DNA from: Kiritimatiellia bacterium
GTDB lineage: Bacteria; Verrucomicrobiota; Kiritimatiellia; CAIVKH01
Direction of reading: 5' to 3'
DNA: 64,000 nt
Assembly (NCBI GenBank): GCA_027493775.1
Contig: JAOSKE010000002.1
Span: forward strand, 407,435 to 471,434
Part shown: positions 12,317 to 64,000 of the stretch, in pieces
Numbering within the stretch: the first letter of the stretch is position 1
How the letters are laid out: the number at the start of each line of letters is the position of its first letter
The notes under the pieces: generated by a model
The model's database searches: none
What the model was told of the DNA's origin: nothing
Seen by the model: the letters and a program-made list of their open reading frames with translations, nothing else
Program-made: the position numbers and the translations under genes

Positions 12317-12317
12317 T

Positions 12318-17014: not shown

Positions 17015-17095
17015 GGAACCCTGATTGAAGCAAAACGGACAACGCTGAATACTTCGCGCAGTGGTTTGGAACGTGTTGTGTGACCGTCCGAAAAA

Positions 17096-18319: not shown

Positions 18320-18326
18320 GGAGAGT

Positions 18327-23505: not shown

Positions 23506-23560
23506 GTCCCGCTCGGCGCTTTGCGTTTCATACCACGTGTGCTAAGCTTGTGGCCCTTGT

Positions 23561-36667: not shown

Positions 36668-36744
36668 TGGCGGGAGCGACGGGACTCGAACCCGCAACCT
36701 CTGCCGTGACAGGGCAGCGCTCTAACCAGTTGAGCTACGCCCCC
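36668..36744 (-). tRNA. tRNA-Asp (anticodon GTC)
   Basis: Reverse complement GGGGGCGTAGCTCAACTGGTTAGAGCGCTGCCCTGTCACGGCAGAGGTTGCGGGTTCGAGTCCCGTCGCTCCCGCCA folds as a cloverleaf: 7-bp acceptor stem, anticodon loop CUGUCAC (GUC), T-loop TTCGAGT, encoded CCA. Confidence 0.9.
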
Positions 36745-38163: not shown

Positions 38164-39226
38164 ATGAATAAAATCAACTGGGCCACACTTGCGATTTCCG
38201 CACTTTTCGCGATGCCCGCTCACTCCGCAAACTCCGGAAGAATTCCGATGAACCCCCTCCCCCCTCCCCCTCCACAGCCATACCAACGCCCTGCTCCTGC
38301 AAAACAGAACCATCGAAGTCGCAATTTTTCCGACAATCGGTCGGATTGGCCTTCTGAACTTTCGCGGTGAGTCGAATGTGCTTCGCTTCGATAGCAGTCT
38401 CGCGGAATCATCCGCAGCTCCACTCACACAATCGCCGGCGGACTGGCGCAATTTCGGTGGCGACTGGGTTTGGCCGGTCTCGCAAGCGCGGTGGCCTGAT
38501 TATTTCGGCGCAAATTGGCCGCCACCGTGGTTGTTGGACGGACCGGCCTGGAGCGCGAATGGATGGGTCAACAACGATCAGTCACAAACCGTTCTGATGA
38601 AGATTGAAATCGGCGAGCCGGTGAACATCATCGTTGAGCGCAAGATCACACTGCCCGCCGATTCCACCACGCTTACGATTCAACAGCGCATCGTGCGCAC
38701 GGCGCCTTCAGCCATCCCCGTCACACTCTGGAACATCAGCCAGCTCGTCGGCGCTCAGCGCGTCGCTCTGGCGACGGATTCAAACAGCGCCTTCACCAAC
38801 GGCTATCGCGTGTTGGATTTTTCGCCGCCGTCGCCGGAGATTATGGATACGGAGACGGCGGAGGTACTCGTCCTAAATGTGAAGAGTGTGGACGAGATTA
38901 AAATCGGCAGCGATTCACCGCGTGGCTGGATTGCCGCGCAGCGCGGGGACACGGTGATCATCGAAAAAGCGCAAGGTCGCGCAGACGCCACGGAATTTCC
39001 TGATGGTGGCTGCCGGACAGAGCTGTATTCCAATAGCGGCCTCGGCTACAGCGAAATTGAGACACTGAGCGAAGAGATCAACTTGGCCGAAGGGCAGTCC
39101 GTTCAAAACACGTTAACCGTCTCGCTCTATCACGTTCCCGCGAATTTGAACGATGAGGAATTTGCCACACGCATTCGCGAATTGCTCGGCGAGCAAGTTG
39201 CGTCGAGCGTGGAAGTCACTGAATAA
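38164..39226 (+). CDS. hypothetical secreted protein; possibly frameshifted between signal-peptide ORF and main ORF
   Basis: ORF 38128-38370 encodes a signal peptide (MNKINWATLAISALFAMPAHSA) plus a Pro-rich stretch; ORF 38378-39226 (GTG start, no signal peptide) follows in another frame. A C-rich tract at 38250-38280 could hide an indel. The merged model is tentative. Confidence 0.4.
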
Positions 39227-39666: not shown

Positions 39667-40086
39667 TTACAAGAATGAGCGCAAGACTTCGACGGCTTTT
39701 TTAGGTTTGTTGACATGCGCGACGATCAGGCTCTGCTCTGCGTCGGCGTCATCGGCAGAGTACGCATACTCCACATTAATTCCGGCCTTTGCCCAAACAT
39801 CAATCGCGCTTGCGAGTCCGCCCGGTTTGTTGGCCACCGTGAGCAAGACCACATCGGTCACGGAGATGATGTGTTTGGCCTGCTTCAACACCTCAACCGC
39901 TTCGTTGTGTTTGTCCACAATGATGCGGACGTAGCCGACGTCAATGCCTTCGGAGAGGGAGAGTGCGAGCATGTTAACGCCGTGCTTGCGTAGGGTGTTG
40001 ATCACTTCAGCAAGGGTGCCGGGGCGATTTTCCAAAAAGATGGAAATCTGTTTTCCCGGTTTCGCATTAAATAATTTATTTGTCAT
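39667..40086 (-). CDS. ACT domain-containing protein
   Basis: Tandem ACT-like pattern (ISIFLENRPGTLAEVINTL...); ATG 40086 preceded by GGGGAGGAG. Confidence 0.65.
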   Translation of the reverse strand: MTNKLFNAKPGKQISIFLENRPGTLAEVINTLRKHGVNMLALSLSEGIDVGYVRIIVDKHNEAVEVLKQAKHIISVTDVVLLTVANKPGGLASAIDVWAKAGINVEYAYSADDADAEQSLIVAHVNKPKKAVEVLRSFL

Positions 40087-40108
40087 TTTTCTTCTCCTCC
40101 CCAACCGA

Positions 40109-41329
40109 CTAGAATCGCAGCGCAGCCTTTTTCAACCGGCTCTCCAACTCCGCCAACACGCGGTCTTCGTCCGCCTCATCCTTTGCCTCAAACGTCGCGG
40201 AGAAACGCAGGAACGGACCCACGTCATCCCACGGCACGGTTGAGACCGATGCTTCGCGAATCAGGAATTGCGACGCGTCCTCGGCCGTATCAAACCGCGT
40301 ATCGCCCGTGCCGACCGGCGCGCGCACGTAGAGATAGAACGTGCCGCCCGGCATAGCGGCCTCGAAACCAACACAGTCGAGCACGTATACCATCTTTTCC
40401 AGTCGCCTGCGATAGTGTTCGCGAATGCTTTCGGAAAGCGTGATGTCTGCAATTCCGGCGCACGCGGCGTGTTGAATCGCCTTGAACTGACCTGAATCGC
40501 AGTTGTCTTTCACCTCCGCAAACGCTTTCACCGCCTTCTGCGAGCCAGCTACAAAACCGAGTCTCCACCCTGTCATATTGTAGCTCTTGCTCATCGAGTG
40601 CAGTTCAATCGCGGCATCTTTTCCACCGGGGCGGGAGAGAATGGAAATGCGGTCACCATAAATCAGCGTCGCATACGCGGCGTCTTGTACGATGAGGATG
40701 TTGTATTTGTTCGCAAAGGCAATCAGCTCATCGAAGAATTCAGCCGTCGGCGCGGCGCCGGTGGGGTTGTTCGGATAATTGACATAGAACAATTTCGCGC
40801 GCTGCGCGAGGGCGGGATCAATCGCCTTCAAGTCGGGGAAGAATCCGTTTTCCTGCTTGAGCGGGATCTTGACCACCTCGCCGCCAACATAGCGGGCGTG
40901 CGTCGCCATCACCGGATAGCCCGGAACGGTTTGAAAGACCACATCGCCGGGATTCACAAAGCACAGCGGCAACATCGCGAGAGCCGGCTTGGACCCGATG
41001 CTGTGATTGATCTCGGTGTCAGGATCCAGATCCGATACGCCGAAGAACTTCTTCATGTATTCCGCAGCGGCCAAGCGGAACTCGCGGATGCCGTTGTCGG
41101 AGTAGCCGCGGTTGGCGGGATCGTCCACCGCCTTCTTCAAGGCATCCCGGATCGCCGCCGGCGCAACCTTGTCCGGTTCACCCACGCCAAAGTCCAGCAA
41201 CTCAACACCAGGCCGCGCGGCGCGGGCGGCCGCCTTTGCCCGCTTAATTTTCTCAAACTTATAGATTTCGGTGCCGACGCCAAATTTGGCGCCGCCAATT
41301 CGTTCGGCAAAGAGTGATTGAATATCCAT
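40109..41329 (-). CDS. dapL: LL-diaminopimelate aminotransferase
   Basis: 406-aa class I aminotransferase with the DapL N-terminus (MDIQSLFAERIGGAKFGVGTEIYKFEKIKRAK...LDFGVGEPD) and PLP-lysine region SMSKSYNMTGWRLG. Confidence 0.8.
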   Translation of the reverse strand: MDIQSLFAERIGGAKFGVGTEIYKFEKIKRAKAAARAARPGVELLDFGVGEPDKVAPAAIRDALKKAVDDPANRGYSDNGIREFRLAAAEYMKKFFGVSDLDPDTEINHSIGSKPALAMLPLCFVNPGDVVFQTVPGYPVMATHARYVGGEVVKIPLKQENGFFPDLKAIDPALAQRAKLFYVNYPNNPTGAAPTAEFFDELIAFANKYNILIVQDAAYATLIYGDRISILSRPGGKDAAIELHSMSKSYNMTGWRLGFVAGSQKAVKAFAEVKDNCDSGQFKAIQHAACAGIADITLSESIREHYRRRLEKMVYVLDCVGFEAAMPGGTFYLYVRAPVGTGDTRFDTAEDASQFLIREASVSTVPWDDVGPFLRFSATFEAKDEADEDRVLAELESRLKKAALRF

Positions 41330-41422
41330 AGATAAACGGCCCTTAACAAGTGAGGCCGAACGTCCGGCTGCTCTTCGCCCGGCCGAACGCTGGCTTCATT
41401 CCAACAAGCTTCCGATCAATTC

Positions 41423-41880
41423 TTACGCATTAATGGCAATCATGGAGAAGACCATCACGAGTAGCGCAACCGTTTCCACGATGCCCAGCCCCATGAGATA
41501 ATTTCCAAAGCCCTTCCCCGTCTCCGCCTGCGAATCCGCTGCGGCAGCGCCAATCACGCCTTGGAACCAGGCGGAAAAGCCCATCGCCAGACCGCCGAAA
41601 ATACCGACGGCGATCAGCATCGGAAAGTCGCTCGGCGTCGCCTTGGCGACCTCGATCATCTTGTTCATCAAAATCATTCCGTAAATCGTCTGCGAGAGCG
41701 GGGCGCCAACGAAGGTTACAAGAATGAACGGCGCGGCTTTATTCTGCAAAAACACTTCTTCCACGCGCCCACCGCCGCGGCGCCGGCTGCACCGATTCCG
41801 ATTGCAGATCCTATCGCGCCAAAAGCCAACGCGCTCGCCGCACCAAATTTTCCCCAGCCGATCATCAGTTCAGGTGTCAT
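41423..41880 (-). CDS. atpK: V-type ATPase proteolipid subunit K; frameshifted near 41761
   Basis: N-terminal hairpin MTPELMIGWGKFGAASALAFGAIGSAIGIGAAGAAAVGAW (ATG 41880 after AAGGAG) is in one frame; the remainder (EEVFLQNKAAPFILV...LLVMVFSMIAINA) is ORF 41423-41764. Confidence 0.75.
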
Positions 41881-41905
41881 CGTTCAGTCTCCTTATAAAT
41901 TAATC

Positions 41906-43670
41906 TCAGTCTTCCGCCGTCTGCTCCGCGTCCAGCCGCCGGAAGGGTTTATATGCAAACCCCGCCCACGAAATGCCGCTGTGCGACGAGAACTCCAGCG
42001 TGATCAAACGCACGCCGTGCACCAGCACGCCCATAACGCAGAGCAATATATTCAGCGCATGTCCGGCAAAGAGGAGCAAGGCCGCAATCAAACCGGCCAC
42101 AATCCCCTTCACCCCGCCAGCAAGAATCATGGTGTTGAACGAGTTGGCAACCGTGTAACTCGCAGCGCCGACGGCAAAGAGACGGATGTAGGAAACAAGA
42201 TCCACGAAGTTGCTGACGAGGTTCAACGGAAGCATGACGTGATTGAACCACTCGCCCTTGAGGTCGCGTGGCGCGGTCATAAACAGCACAATCAGCACCA
42301 CACTCACAATAAACAGGGGAGCGAGCCAGCCCGGCATCGGCTGTCCCAACACGAAACTGCACGCGACAAAAAACATCGTCCAGGTGCTGCCGATCCAACC
42401 CAACTGCGCGAGCATTCGGGGGCTGTTCCAAATCCGCATTGCGTTCCACAGATGCGCCAGCGTGAGGTGAATGGCGCCCAAGAGGAAACTGAGAAACATG
42501 ATGTTGTTCCCGTCCTTCAACCAAGCGACTGTCATGTCGTTAAAGAAACGTCGGCAGCGCGCCCGCGCCGAACCAAGTGCCCGTTACAGTGCCCCAAAGC
42601 ACAGTGCAGAAACTCATAATATAGAGCAGGCGGAAGGGATAGGCGGGCGCTTTCGGCATCTTGCGCCGGGCCGCGAATGTCAGACCCATAAAAATCAATC
42701 CGTAGCCCGCATCGCCAACGATGATGGCGAAAAAGATGCTCAGAAAGAGCAAAAAGGCGGCGTTGGTATCAATCTCGCGATACCCCGGCAACACGCCCAT
42801 AAAATCGAGCACCGCCTTGATGGGTTGAACCCAGCGCGGATTTCGAATCAGTGTCGGCACCTCATCGCCTTCCGGCTCGGAAAGGACCAGACCCCAACCA
42901 TGGCGCGCTGCGGACGCGCGGAGCGCCTCGACGGAATCCGCCGGACAAAACCCACGCAAATACGCGAGGGAAGCTTCTGTGCCCATTCCTTCCCGCGCCT
43001 CCAGAAAGCGAACGGCATCTTCCGCGTCCAAGGCATACTTCTTCAGCAACCCTGCATCTCCCGCGCGTTGTTGCAATAGCTTTTCAGAGGCCGCGATCCG
43101 CGCATCGAGATCGCCGAGTCGCCGATCCAGTTCACTCAACGGCAATTCCGGCATCCGAAACTCATGCGCATCAAGCGAAATCGGCTCGCGGCCGATTGCG
43201 GCAAAATACACACCGCTCTTGTCTTCACGCAAAATCTGAATAGCCACCCCGTCCGGCGCATCCACGCGATGGCCAGCATTCGCGTGGAACAGGCGCACGT
43301 GAACGCCCTTCTTCGCCAGCGCTGCAATGGCCTGTGGATCAAATGTTCCGTACGGCGCGAGGCGGGCGCGCTCCTGCAAAAGCGACTCCCTTTCCTCGCG
43401 GCATTTTCGCGTCTCGTCGAGCACGCCCAAAATCCGTTCCACCATCAAATCGGCCGGTTCGCCGGACGAGGCCGTTCCCTCGTTTTCCGGAAGCGCATCC
43501 AACGCGCGCTTAACATTCGTACGTCGCGCGCGCGCCTGCTCGACATCCTTCCCCTCCGGTGCGCGCACCGAAACCAAATGCAACACGCCCCATTCACGCA
43601 GCGCTTCCAGCGTCGCTTCGCGTTCCGACGCGAGGCACAACAGGGTGAGGCTCTTCATCGGAACAATCAT
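41906..43670 (-). CDS. atpI: V-type ATPase subunit I; frameshifted at 42538-42541
   Basis: N-terminal soluble domain (ORF 42540-43670) and C-terminal membrane domain (ORF 41906-42535) are in adjacent frames; the junction ...GALPTFL/NDMTVAWLKD lies at a T-run. Confidence 0.8.
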
Positions 43671-44266
43671 GCCCCGACCTCCACCGACTTGCTCTTTGCA
43701 ATCTTCGCGCGCGCGACTTCCGCCACCTGCGCGTCGCCGATAAAAATACGGATGATTCGGATGTTCGATTGCGCCTCAGGAATCTTCACCTTCTCAAACA
43801 GGTTCACCCGCTGCGAGGTGGTTCGCAATTCTTCGCCCAATAAGCGGTGCTGTTCGGCGAGAATTTCATGTTCCACGCGAAGGCCGACCAATTGCTCGAC
43901 AGCCGCACGCCCGTCATCCACCCAGGCGTCCGTCGCGAGCAAATCCATCTTCACCGCCTCAAAGCTCACTTCCTGCAAAACCGGGATGTTCACGCCGGCG
44001 ATGTTCCCGCTGCCCGTCTTCACCGCCTTCAATCGCACCCACGCCGACAAATCCACCGGCTCGGCAAACAGGCGCACCCACGAGCGCATGCCCCGTTGCA
44101 AGCGCTCCATCTCGCCGCGCACTTCATCCATCCGCTGCTCAAGCTGTCGCATCTCCATCTGCAACTGCTGTTTTTTGAGCAGCAGCGTCGGGAGATAGCG
44201 CTTGAAGCGCCGCAGTGCATCGCGCTGCGCCTTTAGCTCGTTCTTGGTATGCTTGATCTTCGCCAC
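43667..44266 (-). CDS. atpD: V-type ATPase subunit D
   Basis: MAKIKHTKNELKAQRDALRRFKRYLPTLLLKKQQLQ... typical subunit D coiled-coil. Confidence 0.85.
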   Translation of the reverse strand: MAKIKHTKNELKAQRDALRRFKRYLPTLLLKKQQLQMEMRQLEQRMDEVRGEMERLQRGMRSWVRLFAEPVDLSAWVRLKAVKTGSGNIAGVNIPVLQEVSFEAVKMDLLATDAWVDDGRAAVEQLVGLRVEHEILAEQHRLLGEELRTTSQRVNLFEKVKIPEAQSNIRIIRIFIGDAQVAEVARAKIAKSKSVEVGA

Positions 44267-44282
44267 GGATTCGCTCTTTGGA

Positions 44283-45588
44283 TCAACCCTCGGATTTTTT
44301 CGGCCAGTATTGGTCCGTCATCTTGCCAGGAATACCGGTCTCCGTCGGCTCAAAGCAGTCCGCAAGGATGTGCCAGCCGAGGTCGAGCGCCTTTTCCAAC
44401 GGAATATTCACGCTCAGATCCATCATCTCGCGCTCAAAGCGCGCGCCGTACTTGAGCAACTTCTGATCCCACGCGCTCATCCGGAAACCCATCGCCTGCT
44501 TCTCCAGTGTTTCGCGATAGGACGCATAAAGCTGAATCATCGAGTTCATAATCGTGCGGTGATCCGCGCGCGTCTTGTCGTTCACCAACTGCTTCAGACG
44601 ACTGAGCGAACCGAACGGCTCGATGCGTCCGTTGCGCAGATAGAACTGCCCCTCGGTAATGTAGCCCGTATTGTCCGGCACCGGGTGCGTGACGTCATCG
44701 CCCGGCATCGTGGTCACCGCGAGAATGGTAATAGATCCGGCCGTATCGAAATCCACCGCCTTCTCGTAGCGCGCAGCCAACTGGCTATAGAGGTCACCCG
44801 GATAGCCGCGGTTCGACGGAATCTGCTCCATCGTAATCGCGATTTCCTTCATCGCGTCGGAGAAGTTTGTCATATCGGTCAGCAACACAAGCACGCGCTT
44901 GCTCTGCAGCGCAAACTGCTCCGCGACGGCAAGCGCAATGTCCGGCACCATCAAACACTCCACCGTTGGATCCGCAGCCGTGTGAACGAACAACACCGAG
45001 CGCGCCAACGCGCCCTGCTTTTCGAGCGTGTCGCGGAAATACAAATAATCGTCGTGCTTCAGCCCCATGCCGCCGAGAATGATGATGTCCACTTCTGCTT
45101 GCAGCGCGATGCGCGCAAGCAACGGGTTATACGGCTCACCCGCGACCGAAAAAATCGGGAGTTTCTGCGACTCGACGAGCGTGTTGAACACGTCAATCAT
45201 CGGCAGCCCCGTGCGCACCATGTTTCGCGGAATAATACGCTTCGCCGGATTGACGGACGGGCCGCCAATGGCGGTCATATTTTCTTCAATCGTCGGGCCG
45301 CGATCGCGCGGCTGACCAGAGCCGGTAAAGATGCGGCCCAACAACGCATCGGAAAACGGGACTTCCATCGGATGTCCGAGAAAACGCACCTGCGCATCCG
45401 TCGTGATGCCGCGACTGCCCGCGAACACCTGCAAGTACACGCGCTCGCCCTCGAGTCGAATCACCTGCGCCAACGAGGACCCCGTGTTCGGAGGTGACCT
45501 GCGCCAATTCGCGATAGCCGATTCCTTCCGCGCGCACCACAATGACGTTGCCCGCGATCTGTTCGATTTGTTGATACGTCTTATGCAT
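44283..45588 (-). CDS. atpB: V-type ATPase subunit B; frameshifted at G4/C4 run 45480-45483
   Basis: N-terminus [35 protein letters not shown] (ORF 45286-45588) and the rest ([26 protein letters not shown]... with the nucleotide-binding region) in ORF 44283-45542. Confidence 0.8.
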
Positions 45589-47317
45589 GAGCCGTCACCT
45601 CCGCGAGCATGTCTTCCGCGCGGCTTTCGAGCGTTTTGAATTCGGCGCCGTCCTGCGGCGTGCGGTTCCAGTCCTTTGTGAGCTGTGTCAGCTTTTGGAA
45701 AAATTGCCGTGCGGCATCCTTTTCTTCAAACGTCATCTGCATCTTGAGAACATCGTGAATGTGGTTGAACATATACTTTTGACGATCCGCTGACGTCGCA
45801 GCGTCCACATCGTGATACGCATCCTGCTGCAGATAGACCGAATCGAGATACTCCGCCTTCAGGTACACGACAAAGTCGTCAATGGATGTCCCCTCTTCGC
45901 CGACGACCTTCATCATCTGATTCACTTCACTTCCGCGCCGCAACGTGGAACGCGCAAACACGACTTGATCTTCCGGCACAACACCGTCGTACTTGCTCCA
46001 GGAATCCAGCGGCTGAATCGCCGGGAACCGGCGCGCATCCGAGCGTTCGCGCGACAACCCATGAAACGCGCCGACGACCTTCAGCGTGCTTTGCGTGACC
46101 GGCTCTTCAAAGTTGCCGCCCGCCGGACTCACCGTTCCTCCGATGGTGACCGACCCCGTCGATCCGTCGCGCAATCGCACCACGCCACCGCGCTCGTAGA
46201 ACGCGGCGATAACCGATTCGAGGTACGCAGGGAACGCTTCTTCACCCGGAATTTCTTCCAAGCGCCCGGACATTTCGCGCAGCGCCTGCGCCCAACGCGA
46301 CGTGGAGTCGGCCAGCAGCAGCACGTTGAGGCCCATCTGGCGGTAGTACTCCGCCAGCGTCACGCCCGTGTACACCGACGCCTCGCGCGCAGCGACGGGC
46401 ATCGAGCTGGTATTACAAATAATCAGCGTGCGCTCCATCAAACTGCGGCCCGTGCGCGGATCCTCCAAGTGCGGAAATTCGCGCAAGGTTTCCACCACCT
46501 CACCCGCGCGTTCGCCGCAGGCGGTGATAATGACGATGTCCACATCCGCGTGGCGACTCGTGATCTGCTGCAAAACCGTCTTGCCGGCGCCGAACGGACC
46601 GGGGATGCAATAGGTGCCGCCGCGCGATACCGGGAAGAATGTGTCTACAATGCGAACCTTCGTGACGAGCGGTTCCGTGGGACGCAAACGCTCCGTGTAC
46701 ACTTTGATCGGCAGCTTCACCGGCCAGCGCTGCATCATCGAAACGGAAATCGCGCGCCCCTGCTCGCCCTTCAATGTCGCAATGCCCTCCTCCACCGTGC
46801 GCTCGCCCGCGCCGACGATGGTCTCCACCGTGAACGTTCCGCGCAGCCGGAACGGGACCATGATTCGGTGTTCAAAAATGCCTTCGGGCACCGTTCCCAG
46901 CGTATCGCCCGCCTGCACAACATCACCCACCTTCACCTTGGGCGTGAAGGCCCATTTCGTGTTGCGATCCAACGCGGAAAGATACTTTCCGCGCTGTAGA
47001 AAAAAGCCGCTCTCCTCCGCCAACTCGGGCAGCGGGTTTTGCAAGCCGTCATAAATGGCGCCGAGCAGACCGGGGCCCAATTCAACGCTCAGCAGTTCGC
47101 CGGTGAAATCCACCGCATCGCCCACGCGCAAATCGCCCGTGTCTTCGAACACTTGCAGCTCTGCGATGTTGCCGCGAATTCGAATCACCTCCGCCTTCAA
47201 GCGAAGGTCGCCACTCATCGCATAGGCCACCTCGTTTTGCGCAACTGGCGAAAAGAATTCAACGCGAAGCAGGTTTCCGTTGATCCCTGTAATTTTACCC
47301 TGATGTGTCGTTTCCAT
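45581..47317 (-). CDS. atpA: V-type ATPase catalytic subunit A
   Basis: 578 aa with the Walker A motif GPFGAGKT and typical A-subunit N-terminal barrel; apparently intact. Confidence 0.9.
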
Positions 47318-47328
47318 CCGTTTCGTTC

Positions 47329-47878
47329 CTATTCGTTAACCGATGCCGTCGCCGATGCGCGAACGCGCGTCACCGTCTCTTCCAAGCGCGAATAACCGGA
47401 CTCCTCCGTCAGTCGCGCCCAGCGATGAAGCATGCTCAATTTCACTGCGTACGCAAATACGTACGGCTTGCCAAAAGGCGTCGTGCGCGCCCAGTCATCC
47501 AACAACGCCCAGCGAGAGCGATCCAACGACTGCTCGCGCTCAAGAGGATTCGATTTTGCCGTCGCCTCAACCACGGCGCGCTCCGCCTCGCTGCTAAACG
47601 GGACGCCGGCGTTCTGATACTCGCCCGCATCCACGCCCAGCTTCGCCAGCGCGCGCGCGCGCAAGCGCCAGGCCCAATTGTCGCTCCGCCAGCAACCAGC
47701 GCCGCACAAAGCGGTCTGTCACGGCGGCGCCGCTCGTTCCCAGAAGAATCTCCAACTGATCGCCGAACTCATCCCCTACGATGCGCCGGGCATCCGCCGA
47801 AAACGCCTCCATCGTCATGGGCGGCTCCCCCGTGAACGATAGGGTCGGCAAACTGGCCACAAAGTAGTAGAGGCTCAT
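47329..47878 (-). CDS. hypothetical protein in the V-type ATPase operon; frameshifted in (GC)7 repeat 47649-47662
   Basis: ORF 47594-47878 (MSLYYFVASLPTLSF...LGLALARARA) and ORF 47329-47709 (...LAKLGVDAGEYQ...) join across a GC-dinucleotide repeat. Its position between atpE and atpA matches the Chlamydia-type operon. Confidence 0.55.
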
Positions 47879-47880
47879 GG

Positions 47881-48504
47881 CTACCCATTCTCGCGCGCGG
47901 CCTGATAAACGATCGCGGCGAGGTGTGGACGCAGAAAACTCGAAAGCGCCTCCGCAATCGCCTCATTGGTAAAGCTGTGTTCAATGCGGCCATTCGCGAG
48001 CTTCACGTTGAAACCCTTCAAGATGCGCTCGTCGCCTTTCACTTCGAGGCCCTTGCCCAACTGCTCGCGGTACTTCGATTTGAAGAACGCGACCAATCGC
48101 TCCTGGTCCTTCGGGTTGACCATCACTTCGATCCGATGCTCGCGATCCGGTCGGGACCAGTACGATTCGACGAGCTTCTCCAACATCGTCTGTACCGTCT
48201 CGTACGTCAGCGAGGCGTCGGACGCCTCTTTCGCGAGACGACCGACGATGTTCTCTACGCCCCGCCCGACCGTGATCAACAAATCGCGCGATGCCTGCCG
48301 GAGTGTTTGCTGGCTGCGCGCCGTGAATTGCTCCGCGTCGCGCTCGGCCTTTTCCCGATACTCTTTTGCCTGCTTCTCCGCCTCCGCGACAATCTCTGCG
48401 GCTTGCCTCTTCGCCTTCGCGACGAGATCCGCTGCCTGCTTTTCGCCGGTGTCCACGGCCTCGCGCTGGATGCGCTCGATCAGATGTTGCAATTCTTCAG
48501 CCAT
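47881..48504 (-). CDS. atpE: V-type ATPase subunit E
   Basis: MAEELQHLIERIQREAVDTGEKQAADLVAKAKRQAAEI...; ATG 48504 with AAGGAG 9 nt upstream. Confidence 0.8.
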   Translation of the reverse strand: MAEELQHLIERIQREAVDTGEKQAADLVAKAKRQAAEIVAEAEKQAKEYREKAERDAEQFTARSQQTLRQASRDLLITVGRGVENIVGRLAKEASDASLTYETVQTMLEKLVESYWSRPDREHRIEVMVNPKDQERLVAFFKSKYREQLGKGLEVKGDERILKGFNVKLANGRIEHSFTNEAIAEALSSFLRPHLAAIVYQAARENG

Positions 48505-48592
48505 TGACGACCACTCCTTAATCTTGTCGCCATACCCTTTTCGAATAAAGGGCATCCCGACGTGAAAGACACGGGTGTTATAGGCAAGGATA

Positions 48593-48610
48593 TGGCAATT
48601 GAAAAGCCAA
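48593..48610 (-). promoter_or_regulatory. possible sigma-54-like or palindromic element upstream of the V-type ATPase operon
   Basis: Minus strand reads TTGGCTTTTCAATTGCCA: GG and GC at -24/-12 spacing but a weak -24 box (TGGCTT); also TGGC...GCCA inverted ends. About 90 nt upstream of the atpE ATG. Confidence 0.25.
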
Positions 48611-48663
48611 ACTCGCTCTGATCAAAAATAGGGTTTTCCCCGTAGAAAGCAGTTTATCCGCTT

Positions 48664-50344
48664 TTACGGAACCCTGAAGTTTGCGGTCAACTCAACGACC
48701 TCTTTTCCGACGGCCTCTATGACCGATTCGTTTTGCGGGTCGTTGAGCACGCGCGAAATGAATCCCGCAATACGGGCCATTTCCTTTTCCTTCATTCCGC
48801 GCGTGGTCAACGCGGGAGTGCCGAGACGAATGCCCGAAGTGACAAAGGCGCTCTTGGTATCGAACGGAATCGTGTTTTTATTGACCGTGATGTTCGCCCT
48901 ATCCAGCGCTACCGCCGCGTCCTTTCCGCTAAGCCCCGCAGCGCCGACATCCACGAGCATCAGGTGATTGTCCGTGCCACTGGAGCAAATCCGGAAGCCT
49001 GCATCCATCATCCCCTTCGCCAAGGCCCGCGCATTGGCAACGATCTGTTTCGCGTAGTCCGCGAACGACGGCTGCAGTGCCTCGCCAAAGCAAATCGCCT
49101 TCGCAGCAATAATATGCATCAGCGGCCCGCCCTGAATGCCGGGGAATACCTGCTTATCGAGATCTGCCGCAAATTTTTCGCGGCACAAAATCAAGCCACC
49201 GCGCGGGCCGCGCAGCGTCTTGTGCGTCGTCGAGGTGACAAAGTCGGAATAGGGAACCGGAGCTCGGATGCGCACCGCCCGCGACCAACCCCGCGATGTG
49301 CGCCATATCCACCATCAGCAACGCGCCGACACTGTCCGCAATCTCGCGGAAACGCTTGAAGTCAATGATGCGGGAATAGGCGCTCGCGCCGGAGGTGATT
49401 AGTTTCGGACGATGCTCCTTCGCAAGACGCTCGATCTCGTCGTAGTCAATCTGCTCCGTGTCCTGCCGCACGCCGTACGGAATCACCTTATAGTAACGGC
49501 CCGAAAAGTTCATCGGGTGACCGTGGGTCAGGTGTCCGCCATGCGAGAGATTCATCGCGAGAATCGTGTCGCCCGGTTGCAGCACTGAAAAATAAACCGC
49601 CATATTGGCCTGACTGCCGCTGTGCGTCTGCACATTCGCGTGCTCCGCGCCGAACAACTGCGTCACGCGGTCAATTGCAAGCTGCTCCGCTTTGTCCACA
49701 CACTCGCAGCCGCCGTACCAGCGCTTCTTGGGATAACCCTCGGCGTACTTGTTCGTCATATTGCAGCCAGCAGCCTGACGAATCGCGCGGCTCGTGTAGT
49801 TTTCGGAAGCAATCAGCTCCAAATTCCGGCGCTGCCGAACGCCCTCTTCCGTAATCGCTTCGAAGATCGGTGAATCGTGCTTGGCGATGGAGTCCAATCC
49901 CCCGGCAATGTTGCTCGATTGTTCAATCTTTTCGATGCGGCGAACGTGGCGGCCGCCCTCAAATTCTGTCGCAAACCACTTCTCTAAAATTGCGGGAATC
50001 TCCGCAGTCGGCGTCGTCGCCGCACCAAAGACGATGATATTTGCATTGTTGTGCAAACGTGCAAGTCGTGCCATTTCGGGCGAAACGATCAAAGCGGCGC
50101 GAATGCCGGGATAACGGTTCGCAGTGATGCTCATCCCCACGCCGGTCTTGCAGATCAACAAGCCCTGATCAAATTCGTGATCCGCAACGCGACGCGCAAC
50201 GACGCTCGCGTAGTCAGGATAGTCCACCGACTCCGGCCCAAAAGCGCCGATGTCCTCAACCTCAACGCCACGCTTTGTGAGCAGGTCCTTAACCAACGCC
50301 TTCATCTCCACGCCGCCGTGGTCGGAACCAATAATCATCTTCAT
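48664..50344 (-). CDS. glyA: ribose-5-phosphate isomerase B fused to serine hydroxymethyltransferase; frameshifted near 49264
   Basis: Residues 1-145 are RpiB ([11 protein letters not shown]...[15 protein letters not shown]...[13 protein letters not shown]), running without stop into SHMT ([11 protein letters not shown]...[11 protein letters not shown]). The SHMT C-terminus ([25 protein letters not shown]...) is in the frame of ORF 48664-49275. Confidence 0.75.
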
Positions 50345-50844
50345 TGTTCTTCGCTCTCCGTCTTCCGTTTCAATTGTTTCGTATCTTCCAAAATCGTCAG
50401 CAGCACATCCGCGATCGCGCGGTCAATTCGGTCGCGCGTGAAGCGATACACATCCAGCGACATCCCGATCGGGTCTGGAATATCCTCCATCCGCCGATCC
50501 GTGCCGAATTCCGTCAGCAGGCGCACCCGATCCCGCGCCTCGGGGAACATCGAAAGCACCGCCTGTGCATGACCGCGCGTCATCACAATAATCCAATCGG
50601 ACTCTTCCACCAACTTTTGCGTCAGTGGCTGGCTGCGGTGCTGGCGGACATCAATCTGCCACTCGCGCAGTGCAACCAACGCCTCCGCGCTCGCGGGCAC
50701 GCCCGTCAGTGCGGCGACGCCGGCGGATTTTACGCGCCAACCCGGACGGTTTCCGAGCCGATGCCGCAAAATCGCCTCCGCCATCGGGCTGCGACAAATG
50801 TTGCCCGTGCAGACAAACAAAACTTGATGTGTAGCTTCAGCCAT
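50341..50844 (-). CDS. low-molecular-weight protein tyrosine phosphatase (or arsenate reductase-like)
   Basis: P-loop motif [17 protein letters not shown]. Start at ATG 50844 preceded by GAGAGAGGGAAA; the ORF track start 50916 runs through the palindromic operator. Confidence 0.8.
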
Positions 50845-50878
50845 TTCGTAAAAGCGTTTCCCTCTCTCAACCAAAAAC

Positions 50879-50925
50879 TTCCAAGGGTTGGAAGAACCGT
50901 TCCGCGCGACTTCCAAGGCTTGGAA
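50879..50925. promoter_or_regulatory. pair of 15-bp palindromic sites TTCCAA-N3-TTGGAA (candidate operator) upstream of the PTP/rpiB-glyA operon
   Basis: TTCCAAGGGTTGGAA (50879-50893) and TTCCAAGGCTTGGAA (50911-50925), centres 32 bp apart, 35-81 nt upstream of the minus-strand start at 50844. Confidence 0.55.
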
Positions 50926-50944
50926 CTTTTGCCCACAGTCGGCG

Positions 50945-52264
50945 TTACAACGCGGACGATAGCGGGCCGGGCCGGATATTCAAGGCTTTGAGTCCCAACA
51001 AAACATCCACGGCCCGCTGCAACGCCGCATCGCCGCGAATCCGGTCGCGCAACGCGAGGTCGGAATCTTCCTGATCCAATCGAATCCGACGATCCACCCC
51101 CAGCTCCGGCTCGTACTCAACTTTGCCGGGGCCCGCAGGCAGAATCACGGTCGGTTTCACGCCCGACCGCCCGTCGAGCACGATGCCATCTCCCACAAGC
51201 AGCTTCCGCGTTGCAATGCAAAGTGACTCGCTGTCAGAAATGGAAATGACATCGCGGATGGCGGGGTCGCCCGCAGTCTCGCGCCCGATCACGAGCGTTC
51301 CGCGCAAGCTGCCTGCCGCCGTCGCAGCCAGCGCTTCCGCCGCGCCGGAAGTGTGTTCGTCCACGAGAACCATCACAGGCAAATCAATCGGCGCGGATCC
51401 ACCGGCTTGATAGTTCGTCAGCGTATTGCCGTCGCGATCGAGAAATGAAAACAGCGCCGAACCGGGCGATGCAAACGCGCCGGCAATCTGCGCCGCGCTG
51501 GCAACGTCGCTCCCATCTGCACCGCGCAAATCGAGAATGCCTCCCGCGAGTTTTGCGTCCGCCCACGCCTGCAACTGCGTCAACACCCCCTCGCCGGAAC
51601 CCGCATTCAATCCATTTACTCGCGCATAGCCGATGTCGCGCGGCCACATTTCCGAAACTTCGAACAGGGGGAACGGCGACAACACCCGCTCAACGCGAGT
51701 GGTGGCGGGAGCATTCGTGCCGCGCACGTAAATCAGCTCCGTGCCGCCCGCCGTATGGCCGCGCAACTGGCGCAACGCATCGCTTAACGTGACGTTGGTG
51801 GCCGGCGCGCCCTGAATGGAAATAATGCGATCTCCCGTGCGCAAACTCTCCCCAAGGTCGGCTGGCGCGGCGACGACCACCGGCGTTGCATTCGAAATGG
51901 TCAGGCGGATATCCGTGTGGTAATCCACGCCCGCTTGTTCGTGTTGCCAGTGCTCCAACTCAGCCGCGGTGAAAAGTCGCGCCTGCGGATCCACGATGCG
52001 CGCAACACATTCGTAGAGCGGCGCACGTTCCTCGTCGCCGGTCAGTTGAATGCCGTGCGCCGCCAGATTCGCCAACAGCGCATCCACGTCGGCAACCAAT
52101 GGGTGTTTTGCGGGATCAGGCTCCGGCGTCGTCGCGACAACTTCTGCGTCGAGTTCCAAGACCGGCTCCGCAGCGAGATTCTCCTCAGCAACCTGCGCAT
52201 GAAGGCCGACAGGCAAAAGAAGTACGCCGAAGAGAAACAGCAGTATTTGTCTTAGTTCATTCAT
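50945..52264 (-). CDS. S41-family peptidase (C-terminal processing protease-like), secreted
   Basis: Signal peptide MNELRQILLFLFGVLLLPVGLHA; S41-like catalytic region (...VLVDEHTSGAAEALA...). Confidence 0.65.
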   Translation of the reverse strand: MNELRQILLFLFGVLLLPVGLHAQVAEENLAAEPVLELDAEVVATTPEPDPAKHPLVADVDALLANLAAHGIQLTGDEERAPLYECVARIVDPQARLFTAAELEHWQHEQAGVDYHTDIRLTISNATPVVVAAPADLGESLRTGDRIISIQGAPATNVTLSDALRQLRGHTAGGTELIYVRGTNAPATTRVERVLSPFPLFEVSEMWPRDIGYARVNGLNAGSGEGVLTQLQAWADAKLAGGILDLRGADGSDVASAAQIAGAFASPGSALFSFLDRDGNTLTNYQAGGSAPIDLPVMVLVDEHTSGAAEALAATAAGSLRGTLVIGRETAGDPAIRDVISISDSESLCIATRKLLVGDGIVLDGRSGVKPTVILPAGPGKVEYEPELGVDRRIRLDQEDSDLALRDRIRGDAALQRAVDVLLGLKALNIRPGPLSSAL

Positions 52265-57717: not shown

Positions 57718-58809
57718 CTAGCTCATCAGGTCTTCATAATAGCTGTTAATTTCGTGATCGCGCTCAAAAATCATTAAAATCAGCGTCGCGCGCACCCACA
57801 TTCCATTCCGCACCTGCCGCCAGTATTTCGCGCGGGGGTCCGCGTCCACCTCCGGCGCAATCTCGTGACGTCGCGGAAGCGGGTGCAAAATGATGGCCTT
57901 CTCCTTGAGCACGGAAAGATGTTCCGCGCGCAGATAGAACTTCGTGATGTCAACTGCCCCGCTCTCGCCCGCCTGATCCCACTCGTCCTGAATGCGGGTC
58001 ATATAGACTGCATCCAGCTCCGGCAGCACCTTTTCAAAGTCCGACGTGACCTCGTATTCCATCCCCGCCGCGTCGAGTTTTTCCAAAATATCCGATCCAA
58101 TTTGCAGTTGTTCGGGCGCGACAAAATACTGCTTCACTCCGGGATAGTGCCGCAGCAGCAGTGAAAGAGAACGCACGGTGCGCCCACGCAGAAGGTCGCC
58201 GACAAACGCAATTTTTGCGCCCTCCAAACCGCCGCGTCGAATTTCGAGACTTCGCTGGAGCGAGTAAATATCCAGCAGCGCCTGAGTCGGATGCTGATCC
58301 TTCCCCGACCCCGCATTGATCACCGGCACCGGACGATCCGTTCCGGAGAGCATCCATGCGATGCGCTCCGCAAACCCGCCCTGCGGGTGGCGCATAATGA
58401 TGAGGTCGAAGTAGGAGCTGAACGTACGGACGGAATCCTCCTGCGACTCACCCTTGACCTCCGACGATGTCCGCGCGTCGCGCACCTCCGCCGGTTGAAT
58501 TCCGAGGATTTGGCACGCGGCATAAAAAGAAAGGAACGTTCGCGTGGAGGGCTGCGCGAAATACAACATCGCGCGTTTCTCCGAAAGAAGGTCTTGTAAA
58601 AACTTCATCCCTCCGCGCGTCTTCCCGATCTTCCGCATCTTCGTCGCTGTATCCACGATGCGATCGAGCAGCGGGCGATCAAACTGCTCCGCAATCAACG
58701 CGTGATACGGCCGGCCGTTGTGATTCAGCAACGGCCCCTTTTCCTTCGGCGCCATCGCATGAAATGTCTCCCAAGGAATCCCCCGCAATGCCTTATGTCT
58801 AAAAACCAT
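57718..58809 (-). CDS. pyrB: aspartate carbamoyltransferase catalytic subunit
   Basis: Motifs PSTRTFLSF, HPTQALLD and HPLPRR. The N-terminal extension is uncertain (alternative ATG at 58755). Confidence 0.75.
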   Translation of the reverse strand: MVFRHKALRGIPWETFHAMAPKEKGPLLNHNGRPYHALIAEQFDRPLLDRIVDTATKMRKIGKTRGGMKFLQDLLSEKRAMLYFAQPSTRTFLSFYAACQILGIQPAEVRDARTSSEVKGESQEDSVRTFSSYFDLIIMRHPQGGFAERIAWMLSGTDRPVPVINAGSGKDQHPTQALLDIYSLQRSLEIRRGGLEGAKIAFVGDLLRGRTVRSLSLLLRHYPGVKQYFVAPEQLQIGSDILEKLDAAGMEYEVTSDFEKVLPELDAVYMTRIQDEWDQAGESGAVDITKFYLRAEHLSVLKEKAIILHPLPRRHEIAPEVDADPRAKYWRQVRNGMWVRATLILMIFERDHEINSYYEDLMS

Positions 58810-58983
58810 GCGGATGCGATACAGCGCGGCGAAGATTTAGGCAATATGAAAAGAGAATCGCCTTCTTTTCGCCTTTTAGACCCGGACAGCGACAGGTCGG
58901 CACGGGCAGGGCATGCCATGTCCCTACGAATCATAACGGGAATCTAACGTGACGTTTCTGCTGGCGTGGCGCACAACTTCGGC

Positions 58984-61936
58984 ATGGCTATTCGTATTGA
59001 GGTCGGACTTCGTGACGGTGTGCCGGATGCGCGAGGGGCGGGGGTGGCTGCGGGGGCGCGCGAGGTGTTGGGGGCGCGGGTGGAGCGGTGCGCAGTGCGG
59101 GAATTTTTCTTAATCGAAGGGGCGTTGTCGCCCGCCGAAGTTGAGTTGGTGCGGGGCGCATTTGTTGATCCGGTCACACAAGTGGCAGCGGTGGATCGGC
59201 TCCCTGCCCCATCGGATTTTTCCTACGCGCTGGAGGTGGGGCTGAAGCCAGGGGTGACGGACAATCTGGGCCGGACGGCGGCGACGGTGATCGGCGACAC
59301 GTTGGGGCGCGAGGTGGCAGGTTGCGAGGTGTTCACCGGAACTCAGTATTTCCTGTGGGGTGAGGTGTCGCGTGAGGAGGCGGAGCGGATCGGATGGGAG
59401 TTGTTGGCGAATCGGCTGATTCAAACGGTAGGCGTATTTTCGGGCCGAGAGTGGGTTGTGCGCGCTGTCGGGCGCGATGCGCCGCTGGTGCGGGAAAAGA
59501 GTGCGGTGGAGGCGCGCACATTCGATCTGGAGGTGAGCGACGAGGCGCTACTGGAGATCAGTCGCAAGGGCGTGTTGTCGCTGTCGCTAGAGGAAATGCG
59601 CGCGATTCGGGAATATTACCGGAACGAGGCGGTGCGCGGGGCGCGCGTGGCTGCGGGGCTGCCGGAGTGTCCGACGGACGTGGAGCTGGAGTGTATTGCG
59701 CAGACGTGGAGCGAGCACTGCAAGCACAAGATTTTTTCGGCGCGCGTGCGATACACGGATGAGCACGGCGAGACGCGGGTGATTGATTCGCTATTCAAGA
59801 CGTTCATCAAGGCGGCAACGGCCGAGGTCGGGCGTCGAGTGGATTGGCTGGTATCGGTGTTCAGCGACAACGCGGGGGTCGTGAAATTTAACGAGCGGTG
59901 GAATGTGTTGTTCAAAGTAGAGACGCACAATAGCCCGTCGGCGTTGGACCCGTATGGGGGAGCGATCACCGGAATCGTGGGCGTGAACCGGGATGCGATG
60001 GGGACGGGAGTTGGCGGTGAGATGCTCTGTAATGTGTGGGGATATTGCTTCGGGCCGCCGGATTTCGCGGGAGATTTGCCGGAAGGCTTGATGCATCCGC
60101 GTCGGATTCGCGACGGCGTTCACACGGGGGTGATTGACGGCGGAAATCAGAGTGGGATTCCGTGGGCGCGCGGATGGGAGCTGTTTGACGAGCGATTTCT
60201 GGGAAAGCCGTTGGTGTTCTGCGGAACGGTCGGAAAGCTCCCGGTGACGGTGGGAGGTGAGCCGTCGGAGCGAAAGGAAGCACTGCCGGGCGATTTGATC
60301 GTGCAGGCGGGGGGCGCATTGGGAAAGACGGAATTCACGGGGCAACATTCTCATCCGTTGAGCTGCGCGAGGAATCGCCAGCGCAGGCGGTGCAAATTGG
60401 GGATCCGATTACACAGCGAAAGCTGTACGAATTTTTAGTCGAGGCGCGGGATGCTGGACTGTTTCGGGCAGTGACGGACAATGGCGCAGGCGGATTGAGC
60501 AGCTCGGTCGGTGAGATGTGTACGTTGAGTGGTGGAGCGGAGGTGGATTTGACAGAGGCACCGCTAAAGTATGAAGGGCTGCAACCGTGGGAGATTTTTC
60601 TTTCTGAAGCACAGGAGCGGATGACGCTGGCGGTGCCGCCGGAGAAATGGAAGGCGTTTGCAACATTGGCGCGGCGTCGGGATGTGGAGGTTGCGCGGCT
60701 CGGACATTTCACGGGTTCGGGGCAATTGCGGATATGGTATCAGGGGCGACTATACGGGGCGCTGGCGCTGGAGTTTCTGCACGAAGGTTGTCCACGAATG
60801 GAGATTCCCGCAGTGTGGTCGGCGCCGCGCGTGGCAGCGCCACCGCCACTGCCAGAGGGAGACTGCCCCGAGTGGGTCGTGCGCGTGTTGGAGGCGCTGA
60901 ACATTCGCTCAACGGAAGAAAAGAGTCGGATGTACGACGGGGAAGTGAAGGGCCTGAGTGTGGTGAAACCCTACGTGGGGGTGCGGAGCGATGTGCCGAG
61001 CGATGCGACAGTGATACGCGTGGAGTACGGCGAACACGAGGGGATCGCGCTGGCCGAGGGCGTGAATCCATTTTTGTCGGATTTGGACACGTACGCGATG
61101 GCCGCATCGGTCGTGGACGAAGGGGCGCGTCGAATTGTCAGCGTGGGCGGGCGCTGGGATCAGATTGCGGGGTTGGACAATTTCTGCTGGCCGGACCCGG
61201 TGCTGTCCGAGGGGACGCCCGACGGGCCGTATAAGATGGCGCAGTTGGTGCGGGCAAATCAGGCGCTGTACGATGTGTGCGTCGCGTACGGAATACCACT
61301 GATCAGCGGCAAGGACAGTATGAAAAACGACTCGGTGCGGGGCGGGCGCAAAATTTCGATCCCCCCACCCTGCTATTTTCGACGATTGGAAAACTGGACG
61401 ATGTGCGAAAGGCAGTAACCATGCCCTTCAAGCGCGCGGGCGATGTTATTTTTGTGCTGGGTCTCACGCGGGACGAATTGGGCGCATCGCTGTTTTATCG
61501 TCTGCGCGCCCGCGCGGCGGCGACGCCGGATCAAATTGGCGGCGCGACACCGGGGTTGGATGTGCACGTCGCAAAGCGGCTGTACGCGGCAATGAACGTG
61601 GCGCAGTCGCGTGGCTTGGTGCGGTCGTGCCATACGCCGACGCGCGGTGGATTGGCCGCTGCATGTTGTCTCGCCGCACACGGCGGCGGGTTGGGCGCGG
61701 AGATTGACTTGGAGCGCGCACCGAACAATGACGTTTCACTGGATGCGTTGTTATTCGCGGAGAGCAACAGTCGTTTTGTCACAACCTGCGCACCGGAATG
61801 CGCGGCGCAGTTCGAAGAAGTCTTCGCGGGCCTGCCGTGTGCGCGCGTGGGATTTGTTTCAGCGGAGCCGGAGGTGGCCGTGAGGTATGCGGGCCGCGAG
61901 GTCTTCCGTTGGCGCGAGGCGAACAGCGCTCGATAA
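58984..61936 (+). CDS. purL: phosphoribosylformylglycinamidine synthase PurS-PurL fusion; two frameshifts (G-run 60309-60314, C-run 61361-61366)
   Basis: PurS-like N-terminus (MAIRIEVGLRDGVPDARG...), then PurL AIRS domains. The frame changes at ...IVQAGG/RIGKDGIHGATFSSVELREE... and again at ...KISIPP/TLLFSTIGKLDDVRKA...; the three ORF-track pieces 58966-60438, 60390-61418 and 61277-61936 join into ~984 aa. Confidence 0.8.
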
Positions 61937-61940
61937 AAAT

Positions 61941-62741
61941 ATGAAACCTACGATCTTGATTATTACCGGCTACGGGCTGAACTGCGAGGGGGAGTCGGAG
62001 TATGCGTGGCAGTTGGCGGGGGCTGAGCCTCGGCGAATGCACGTGAATGATTTGTTGGCAAATCCTGCGCCGCTGCGCGATACGGCAGGCTTGATGCTTG
62101 GGGGCGGGTTCTCGTTTGGCGATCACTTGGGATCGGGATTGGTCTTTGCGAATCGGCTGAAGACAAAATTGCGTGATGAACTGCAATCGTTTTTGGAGCG
62201 CGGTCGGATTGTGCTGGGGATCTGCAATGGGTTTCAGATTTTGACGAAGCTGGGAATGCTGCCGGGGTTGAATGGAGACTATTTTGCACCGACGGTTTCG
62301 TTGCAACAAAACGAGTGCGGACGGTTTCAGAATTTCTGGGTGAAGCTGAAGTTCGAGTCGGAGAGCCGGTGTATTTTCACACAGGGCTTGGGCGAGATGG
62401 AGGTTCCGATTCGACACGGTGAAGGTCGAATTTTTCCGGCGGACGCAAAGGTATTGCGGGAGCTGGAGGAGAAGAAACTGGTTCCATGTCGCTATGTGAA
62501 TCCCACCACAGGCGAGCCGACGCAGGAGTTCCCGTACAATCCGAACGGATCGGTGAATGCGATCGCGGGGTTGTGCGATGAGACCGGGCGGGTGTTCGGG
62601 TTGATGCCCCACCCCGAAGCACATTTATTTCCCGAAAATCATCCGCAGTGGGACTTCAAAAAAGCCAGTGGCACGTTGCCGGAGCACGGAGCGGGGCTGG
62701 CGATTTTTAAGAACGCGGTCGCTTATCTGAAATCTGCGTGA
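61941..62741 (+). CDS. purQ: phosphoribosylformylglycinamidine synthase glutaminase subunit
   Basis: MKPTILIITGYGLNCEGE..., catalytic Cys in GICNGFQIL, His near the C-terminus (GLMPHPE). Confidence 0.9.
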   Translation: MKPTILIITGYGLNCEGESEYAWQLAGAEPRRMHVNDLLANPAPLRDTAGLMLGGGFSFGDHLGSGLVFANRLKTKLRDELQSFLERGRIVLGICNGFQILTKLGMLPGLNGDYFAPTVSLQQNECGRFQNFWVKLKFESESRCIFTQGLGEMEVPIRHGEGRIFPADAKVLRELEEKKLVPCRYVNPTTGEPTQEFPYNPNGSVNAIAGLCDETGRVFGLMPHPEAHLFPENHPQWDFKKASGTLPEHGAGLAIFKNAVAYLKSA

Positions 62742-63836: not shown

Positions 63837-63969
63837 AGTGCGATTGTACTCGCGCACAGAGCGGATGCAACCGCGCAGAAATCCCACCCGCTCCGCCCGA
63901 TTTTGGGCTTCCGTTCCTCTTCAACTTCTGGGTATATGATTTGCGTCGGACTGTTCCAGTCCAAGCAAC

Positions 63970-64000
63970 GGAGAGGTGGCCGAGTGGTTTAAGGCGCACG
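63970..64000 (+). tRNA. tRNA, 5' part only (truncated by window end; tRNA-Ser-like start)
   Basis: GGAGAGGTGGCCGAGTGGTTTAAGGCGCACG matches the acceptor and D-arm of a type-II tRNA; the anticodon is beyond the window. Confidence 0.6.

Follow-up and report, generated by a model that had tools for sequence, protein, structure and literature searches.

The closest solved relatives of the rotary ATPase considered here are the Pyrococcus A-ATP synthase, the Enterococcus hirae Na+-V-ATPase and the Thermus V/A-ATPase. The enzyme is encoded by an operon of seven genes (atpE, a DUF2764 gene, atpA, atpB, atpD, atpI and atpK) at positions 41423-48504 of a 64-kb stretch of DNA (the window) from contig JAOSKE010000002.1 of a Kiritimatiellia metagenome-assembled genome (MAG). 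The E. hirae complex also has the subunits C (d), F and G, and its operon is arranged as ntpFIKECGABD. The Thermus enzyme is coupled to protons and likewise contains F and G. In classical operons of the order E-C-F-A-B-D, C (and F) occupies the place where the DUF2764 gene is found here.

The A, B, D, E, I and K subunits of the operon are homologous to those of the E. hirae Na+-V-ATPase (Ntp; PDB 2bl2, 3vr2, 8wci). The proteolipid AtpK, of 152 amino acids (aa), aligns over nearly its full length with the 156-aa NtpK and has one glutamate and the same Na+ ligands, and the stator arginine is conserved as well. The two systems differ in that the operon in the window is without C, F and G, carries the DUF2764 gene after E and has its membrane genes last rather than first; AtpK is, moreover, highly divergent from NtpK in single-sequence comparison. 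The V/A-ATP synthase of Thermus thermophilus (PDB 6ly9 and 1r5z, among others) is built on the same rotary plan, and its A, B, D, E and I subunits are homologous to those of the window; it runs in the direction of ATP synthesis, one of two that are conceivable for the present enzyme. Its c subunit, however, is a chain of 73-102 residues in the solved structures, and a 323-aa subunit C is present.

Operons reduced in the same way are known from several phyla. The order E-hypothetical-A-B-D-I-K is presumably that of Chlamydia trachomatis CT310-CT304, and it was observed here for Treponema and other Spirochaetes. In contrast to the reduced-genome pathogens of the Chlamydia and spirochaete clade, the host of the present operon is a free-living member of the Kiritimatiellia with a GC content of about 58%. 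A divergent clade of V-ATPases from Chlamydia, Borrelia, Treponema and Bacteroides has been recognised since at least 2008 (PMC2359735). Bacteroides fragilis P207 (PTOS_002482-88) has a reduced seven-gene operon with DUF2764 in second place, encoding fewer stalk subunits than characterised bacterial V-ATPases, and the Na+-coordinating residues of its subunit K are conserved; the same operon is found in other Bacteroidetes (bioRxiv 10.1101/2023.05.11.540287), for example Porphyromonas gingivalis. These organisms belong to another phylum, and the DUF2764 protein of the window is a short form of about 180 aa as compared with the 271 positions of the Pfam model. A V-type ATP synthase has already been reported for the Kiritimatiellota, the phylum of the window; that of Kiritimatiella glycovorans L21-Fru-AB, predicted to synthesise ATP from an Rnf-generated H+ or Na+ gradient, is a possible counterpart of the present enzyme (PMC5148204).

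Compared with these systems, the locus is very probably an ordinary operon for a V/A-type rotary ATPase, functional and of the reduced E-DUF2764-A-B-D-I-K type in a Kiritimatiellia MAG (Planctomycetes-Verrucomicrobia-Chlamydiae, or PVC, superphylum).

The seven genes and their products

The seven genes are read in the same direction on the minus strand, from 48504 to 41423, as was established from the listing of open reading frames (ORFs) and by NCBIfam and Pfam searches. A first-pass annotation, made earlier from the same DNA, had described a V-type operon of the order E-hypothetical-A-B-D-I-K; the family matches confirm it, and its span of 41423-48504 is exact, 48504 being the start of atpE and 41423 the stop of atpK. 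The genes and the region preceding them are as follows.

48505-48663, minus strand: non-coding stretch that separates atpE from the glyA fusion gene and presumably holds the promoter, with indels at 48538 and 48623
47881-48504, minus strand: atpE, peripheral-stalk subunit E, 207 aa (NF002424, E = 1.8e-42, residues 1-205 on model positions 1-202 of 203)
47329-47878, minus strand: DUF2764 gene, short form, 182 aa (PF10962, 41.2 bits, gathering score 24.1)
45581-47317, minus strand: atpA, catalytic subunit A, 578 aa, intact (NF003220, 786 bits, cut-off 470)
44283-45588, minus strand: atpB, non-catalytic subunit B, 434 aa (corrected protein, NF002555, 752.9 bits, cut-off 431)
43667-44266, minus strand: atpD, central-stalk subunit D, 199 aa, intact (NF002565, 235.9 bits, cut-off 189; PF01813, 134 bits)
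41906-43670, minus strand: atpI, membrane stator (a-type) subunit I, 587 aa (NF004429, E = 1.3e-119, residues 1-579 on model positions 1-606 of 608)
41423-41880, minus strand: atpK, proteolipid, 152 aa, a c subunit of the duplicated, two-hairpin kind known from E. hirae NtpK (NF005174, 191.7 bits, cut-off 127)

AtpA is comprised of the Pfam domains ATP-synt_ab_N, ATP-synt_ab_Xtn (PF16886, 98.9 bits, the inserted domain specific to A), ATP-synt_ab and ATP-synt_VA_C. Its translation contains the Walker A motif GPFGAGKT, and its best solved relatives are the A subunit of Pyrococcus, NtpA of E. hirae and the A subunit of Thermus. The true ATG of atpE is at 48504, in agreement with the gene calls in short-read contigs of the Logan collection; a longer ORF reaching 48555 is an artefact produced by an extra A at 48538. 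Two of the products score under the curated NCBIfam cut-offs: subunit E reaches 145 bits with NF002424 (cut-off 241), and 20.2 bits with the Pfam model vATP-synt_E (gathering score 24.2), and subunit I reaches 401 bits with NF004429 (cut-off 799). Since both nevertheless align with their models from end to end, they are regarded as divergent members of their families.

Judging from the family assignments, A3B3 would form the catalytic head, D the rotating shaft and E the peripheral stalk, while K would supply the proteolipid of the rotor ring and I would act as stator in the membrane.

The spacing between neighbouring genes ranges from an overlap up to 26 nt, which leaves no room for a C/d, F or G/H gene inside the operon, and the family searches of the operon gave no match to PF01992 or to the F or G families among its genes. 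The earlier claim that C, F and G/H genes are lacking thus holds for the operon itself. The gene that had been called hypothetical is indeed second in order, but it has an identity, given by PF10962, as a DUF2764 gene. Searching the 64-kb window by tblastn with relatives of AtpA and AtpB gave no further ATPase alpha/beta-like match. A scan of positions 40000-49000 for sigma-70 promoter and terminator consensus sequences returned nothing above shuffled expectation.

Interrupted reading frames in the window copy

In each of four genes out of the seven, those for DUF2764, B, I and K, one single-base insertion or deletion (indel) divides the reading frame in two, a feature absent from the first-pass annotation. 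The breaks were located by alignment to the nearest genome locus and then to four short-read (Logan) contigs, which come from different sequencing runs and carry the exact AtpA. Three of the changes are of the +1 kind: an extra base at 47648 in the DUF2764 gene, an extra G at 45480 in atpB, where GGG is read as GGGG, and an extra T at 42542 in atpI, which divides the product into pieces of 376 aa and 209 aa. The fourth is a -1 change at 41747 in atpK, where a T is missing from a T6 run and the N-terminal 40 aa are out of frame.

The four short-read contigs are 99.75-99.95% identical to the window and contain seven intact genes, encoding E (207 aa), DUF2764 (182 aa), A (578 aa), B (434 aa), D (199 aa), I (587 aa) and K (152 aa). 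At each indel position the four share one reading, and it is the window that departs from it. In 20.6 kb of alignment, L081, one of the four, is separated from the window by 1 substitution and 10 one-base indels. Another, L083, represents a slightly different strain with 26 single-nucleotide polymorphisms (SNPs); the indels are absent from it and all its genes are intact. The intact 182-aa DUF2764 protein (P0001) is present on 21 short-read contigs. A second set of short-read contigs, covering positions 8328-29288 of the window, revealed 4 further indel events, two of which split ssnA and ygfK. In total, 14 indel events were found in the 41.6 kb compared, or about 1 per 3 kb, and most of them are changes of homopolymer length. 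The sites at which the window departs from the short-read assemblies are given below.

8950, 11819, 13427, 26523-26524, 38264-38265, 41747, 42542, 45480, 47648, 48538, 48623, 49261 and 54602: single-base indels, one of 2 bases

Indels also fall in the rpiB-glyA fusion (49261), in another gene (54602) and in intergenic DNA (48538, 48623 and 38264/5), and the operon has no excess of them (binomial P = 0.20). When the bases at 47648, 45480 and 42542 are deleted and one base is added to the run at 41747, all seven proteins become 100% identical to those of other samples. The intact short-read assemblies, the window-wide occurrence of indels without enrichment in the operon and the restoration of identical proteins by four edits argue that the four frameshifts are almost certainly assembly errors and not pseudogenes. 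The longest NCBI contig with the exact proteins, of 668 kb, fits a long-read MAG.

Were the frameshifts real, the V-ATPase operon would be decaying to pseudogenes in this strain, for example after a shift to a purely substrate-level supply of ATP. Such decay could be read from the interruption of four of the seven genes in the window and from the numbering of the NCBI records, in which D ends in ...249 and A in ...250 with none between, suggesting that there is no protein record for B there. It is nevertheless highly improbable, because the same kind of indel is found in glyA, ygfK, ssnA and intergenic DNA, and because the ratio of indels to substitutions relative to L081, 10:1, is the opposite of normal divergence. 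There are no nonsense substitutions and no larger deletions, indels are not enriched in the operon, the strain represented by L083 keeps every gene intact in spite of its 26 SNPs, and the corrected proteins match those of four other samples exactly.

Another conceivable explanation is that the interruptions are programmed ribosomal frameshift sites which tune the stoichiometry of the subunits. Three of the four sites do lie in short homopolymer runs (GGGG, TTTCTTT and TTTTT). In the four near-identical assemblies, however, and in each of the 80 related loci (the best 80 hits, taking one genome per GTDB species), the sites are missing and the genes are single ORFs; the shifts needed would be of mixed sign, +1 and -1; and indels of this kind are also found in non-coding DNA and in genes that have nothing to do with the ATPase. 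The chance that frameshifting is programmed here is negligible. Both candidates, pseudogenisation and programmed frameshifting of B, I, K and DUF2764, were rejected, being ruled out by the intact alleles in four independent short-read assemblies.

A useful by-product of the assembly-error reading is a warning about the window as a whole: with about one indel error per 3 kb, apparent pseudogenes, split genes or truncated ORFs anywhere in it should be distrusted.

Coupling ion and the DUF2764 protein

The two membrane subunits bear on the ion that is transported. The stator arginine is found in AtpI, where the R of LVSYIRLFAVG aligns with the R of LVSYTRLMALG in E. hirae NtpI (PDB 8wci_P), and NtpI of this Na+-ATPase is also the best solved match to subunit I. 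AtpK has one ion-binding glutamate per subunit, E136. A PDB search with the single AtpK sequence gave no match, and the family profile was needed to reach NtpK; the K-family profile aligns with E. hirae NtpK (PDB 2bl2) over its full length. Murata et al. are said to have found in 2005 that the Na+ ion of NtpK is coordinated by T64, Q65, Q110 and E139, with Y68. In the alignment, S63, Q64, Q107, E136 and Y67 of AtpK correspond to these T64, Q65, Q110, E139 and Y68, respectively. Q64, Q107, E136 and Y67 are invariant in 15 aligned relatives, and position 63 is S in the consensus and T in many relatives.

Since every Na+-coordinating side-chain position of NtpK is conserved in AtpK, the rotor ring probably binds Na+ and the enzyme is probably Na+-coupled. 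In a fermenting anaerobe, such an enzyme could make ATP from a Na+ gradient, for instance one generated by Rnf, or could pump Na+ out at the expense of ATP, and the sequence fits either direction. Coupling to protons is the alternative. A complete Na+ motif permits the binding of Na+ without proving which ion is used in the cell, and for K. glycovorans, whose V-type ATP synthase was predicted to use an Rnf-generated gradient, the authors left H+ versus Na+ open (PMC5148204). The conservation of all four Na+-coordinating side chains of NtpK, with Q64, Q107 and E136 invariant across the family, and the match of subunit I to NtpI make proton coupling unlikely, and Na+ coupling is preferred.

The second gene of the operon raises a different question. 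PF10962 matches all 20 second-gene products compared, and 18 of the matches exceed the gathering score (24.1 bits). The protein of the window is the short form, which matches only positions of about 1-44 and 195-266 of the 271 in the model. An AlphaFold2 model based on 23 homologues is all-helical and of high confidence, with a predicted local distance difference test (pLDDT) score of 89.7. No significant relative of the protein was found in the PDB, either by sequence profile or by a Foldseek search with the AlphaFold2 model (E < 0.001), and these sequence and fold searches of the PDB found no solved structure of the reduced, DUF2764-containing type. The highest query-normalised template modelling (TM) score, a weak 0.35 with E = 4.3, was to subunit C of Thermus (6ly9_M). 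Three of the 20 DUF2764 members have sub-threshold matches to PF01992 (vATP-synt_AC39), at positions 256-312 of 339, the best with 22.7 bits (gathering score 29) and E = 7.5e-5. Alignment by hhalign to a profile of 20 Thermus-type subunit C sequences placed residues 14-141 on 209-315 with a P of 0.065, which is not significant, and the comparisons with Thermus subunit C alone and with the 20-member alignment gave P = 0.02-0.07 and a probability below 3%. All of these weak signals fall in the C-terminal third of subunit C/d, and none of them is significant.

The DUF2764 protein may be a structural subunit that links the D shaft with the K ring in place of C/d. More specifically, we tentatively suggest that the short form could be a minimal, highly diverged counterpart of C/d, amounting to about its C-terminal third and joining shaft and ring in a Na+ V-ATPase that has no F or G and whose stalks are formed by E alone; this remains the less probable side of the question.

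A separate observation concerns subunit C. One relative of Thermus subunit C, P0026, is a protein of 395 aa in which the subunit C family PF01992 is combined with the subunit F family PF01990. A naturally occurring fusion of C with F is a possible explanation and would fit the adjacency of C and F in the classical operons.

Several points weigh against reading the locus as an ordinary functional operon with a Na+-coupled product and a structural DUF2764 subunit. The scores of E and I lie under the NCBIfam cut-offs. Two of the indels, at 47648 and 49261, are outside homopolymer runs. For the DUF2764 protein, with its suggested structural role, neither the profile search nor the fold search of the PDB returned a significant match, and the hhalign comparison with subunit C gave P = 0.065. 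Ion specificity and the direction of operation, finally, are predictions from sequence.

Host lineage, gene order and neighbouring genes

NCBI already lists proteins identical to the AtpA, AtpD and DapL of the window (MCZ7592250.1, MCZ7592249.1 and MCZ7592246.1, respectively), under the name of a 'Kiritimatiellae bacterium' MAG. With one genome taken per GTDB species, the nearest AtpA, 87% identical, is that of a Kiritimatiellia MAG (L001), and the next 15 or so matches come from MAGs labelled Kiritimatiellia, Verrucomicrobiota or Lentisphaerae. Gene order in the L001 locus is collinear with positions 56744-39676 of the window, about 17 kb. The genes common to both encode a glycosyltransferase, a PA14 protein, PurD, a peptidase of family S41, the LMWPc/RpiB-serine hydroxymethyltransferase (SHMT) protein, the seven ATPase subunits, DapL and an ACT protein.

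The first-pass annotation had proposed a PVC origin outside the Chlamydiae from the presence of dapL and of a Minf_1886-like protein, from a GC content of about 60% and from the gene order of the operon. The first three observations stand. DapL matches the LL-diaminopimelate aminotransferase equivalog NF004937 with 601.9 bits (cut-off 585), the Minf_1886-like protein at about 23546-23980 on the plus strand matches TIGR04138 with 159.8 bits (cut-off 60), and the GC content of the window is 55-62%. The name of the TIGR04138 model, 'Plancto_Ver_chp', points to Planctomycetes and Verrucomicrobia. Together with the names of the exact proteins, the nearest genome and the synteny, these sequence data support the assignment of the genome to the class Kiritimatiellia of the PVC superphylum and not to the chlamydiae.

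As to the gene order, the order itself was correctly given, but it is a weak pointer to Chlamydiae or PVC bacteria. E-X-A-B-D-I-K is found in 80 of the 80 related loci, which include Treponema and other Spirochaetes (more than 20 spirochaete loci), Fibrobacter and MAGs labelled Planctomycetota and Sumerlaeota, and the median gaps between the operon genes in them are 2-76 nt. There is no chlamydial locus among these best 80 hits. In three loci (L015, L022 and L033), atpA and atpB, which as a rule overlap, are separated by an insertion of about 1.0-1.2 kb. AtpA of Fibrobacter is 73-75% identical to that of the window, as compared with 69-78% for many Kiritimatiellia and 66-69% for the proteins of Treponema and further spirochaetes. 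An order common to all 80 loci and to Bacteroides, and a Fibrobacter AtpA as close as that of many Kiritimatiellia, make the operon a poor taxonomic marker.

The closeness of the Fibrobacter AtpA implies either a past transfer between phyla or a very slow evolution of AtpA, and multiple transfers were likewise inferred by Mulkidjanian et al. (PMC2359735). A recent horizontal acquisition of the present operon from Chlamydiae or Spirochaetes, which would make it uninformative on the host lineage, is nonetheless very unlikely: the operon and both its flanks are collinear with the Kiritimatiellia MAG, the closest 15 or so AtpA hits all come from MAGs labelled Kiritimatiellia, Verrucomicrobiota or Lentisphaerae, and the GC content is uniform across the region.

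Outside the operon, the following two features were assigned in the window.

40109-41329, minus strand: dapL, LL-diaminopimelate aminotransferase, following atpK after 94 nt and not belonging to the ATPase
36668-36744, minus strand: tRNA-Asp (GTC), the sole Rfam or ARAGORN match in the whole window

The dapL gene directly follows atpK in the close relatives L001, L004, L006 and L007 and does not do so in more distant loci. It may be co-transcribed with atpK. Around atpK-dapL, no terminator-like site was found above shuffled expectation.

On the other side of the operon, RpiB is fused to SHMT in the minus-strand region 48664-50979 (6446-8655 of L081). The fused protein has 559 aa, and the copy in the window is split by the indel at 49261. 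The fusion gene is preceded by an overlapping gene for a low-molecular-weight phosphotyrosine phosphatase (177 aa); in L001 (6424-8607), the phosphatase, RpiB and SHMT are all in one ORF of 727 aa. Further away, positions of about 8300-20500, and probably upstream to about 5900, hold a cluster which resembles the ygeW-ygfK region of Escherichia coli. It encodes subunits of the xanthine-dehydrogenase type (Fer2, FAD_binding_5 and MoCoBD), an amidohydrolase similar to 8-oxoguanine deaminase, SsnA, YgfK (1110 aa when intact), a protein similar to L-serine dehydratase, the knotted carbamoyltransferase YgeW, carbamate kinase and a pyridoxal phosphate enzyme. The cluster suggests anaerobic purine catabolism in a member of the Kiritimatiellia. 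At about 58 kb, the GC skew flips from negative to positive together with a switch to plus-strand genes (region of about 58000-64000); this could be a replication landmark or a mere change in gene orientation.

The operon type has already been described in the literature, and the observation made in the window is real, was mainly well interpreted and is ordinary. Reduced seven-gene V-ATPases with DUF2764 are widespread in anaerobes and pathogens, and the operation of a rotary ATPase that lacks C/d, F and G is a question posed by the operon type, independent of this window. If the short-form DUF2764 protein is indeed a counterpart of C/d, these enzymes would constitute a distinct structural subclass of rotary ATPases, common to Kiritimatiellia, Spirochaetes, Fibrobacteres, Bacteroidetes and Chlamydiae, and this would characterise the operon family as a whole rather than the locus described here.

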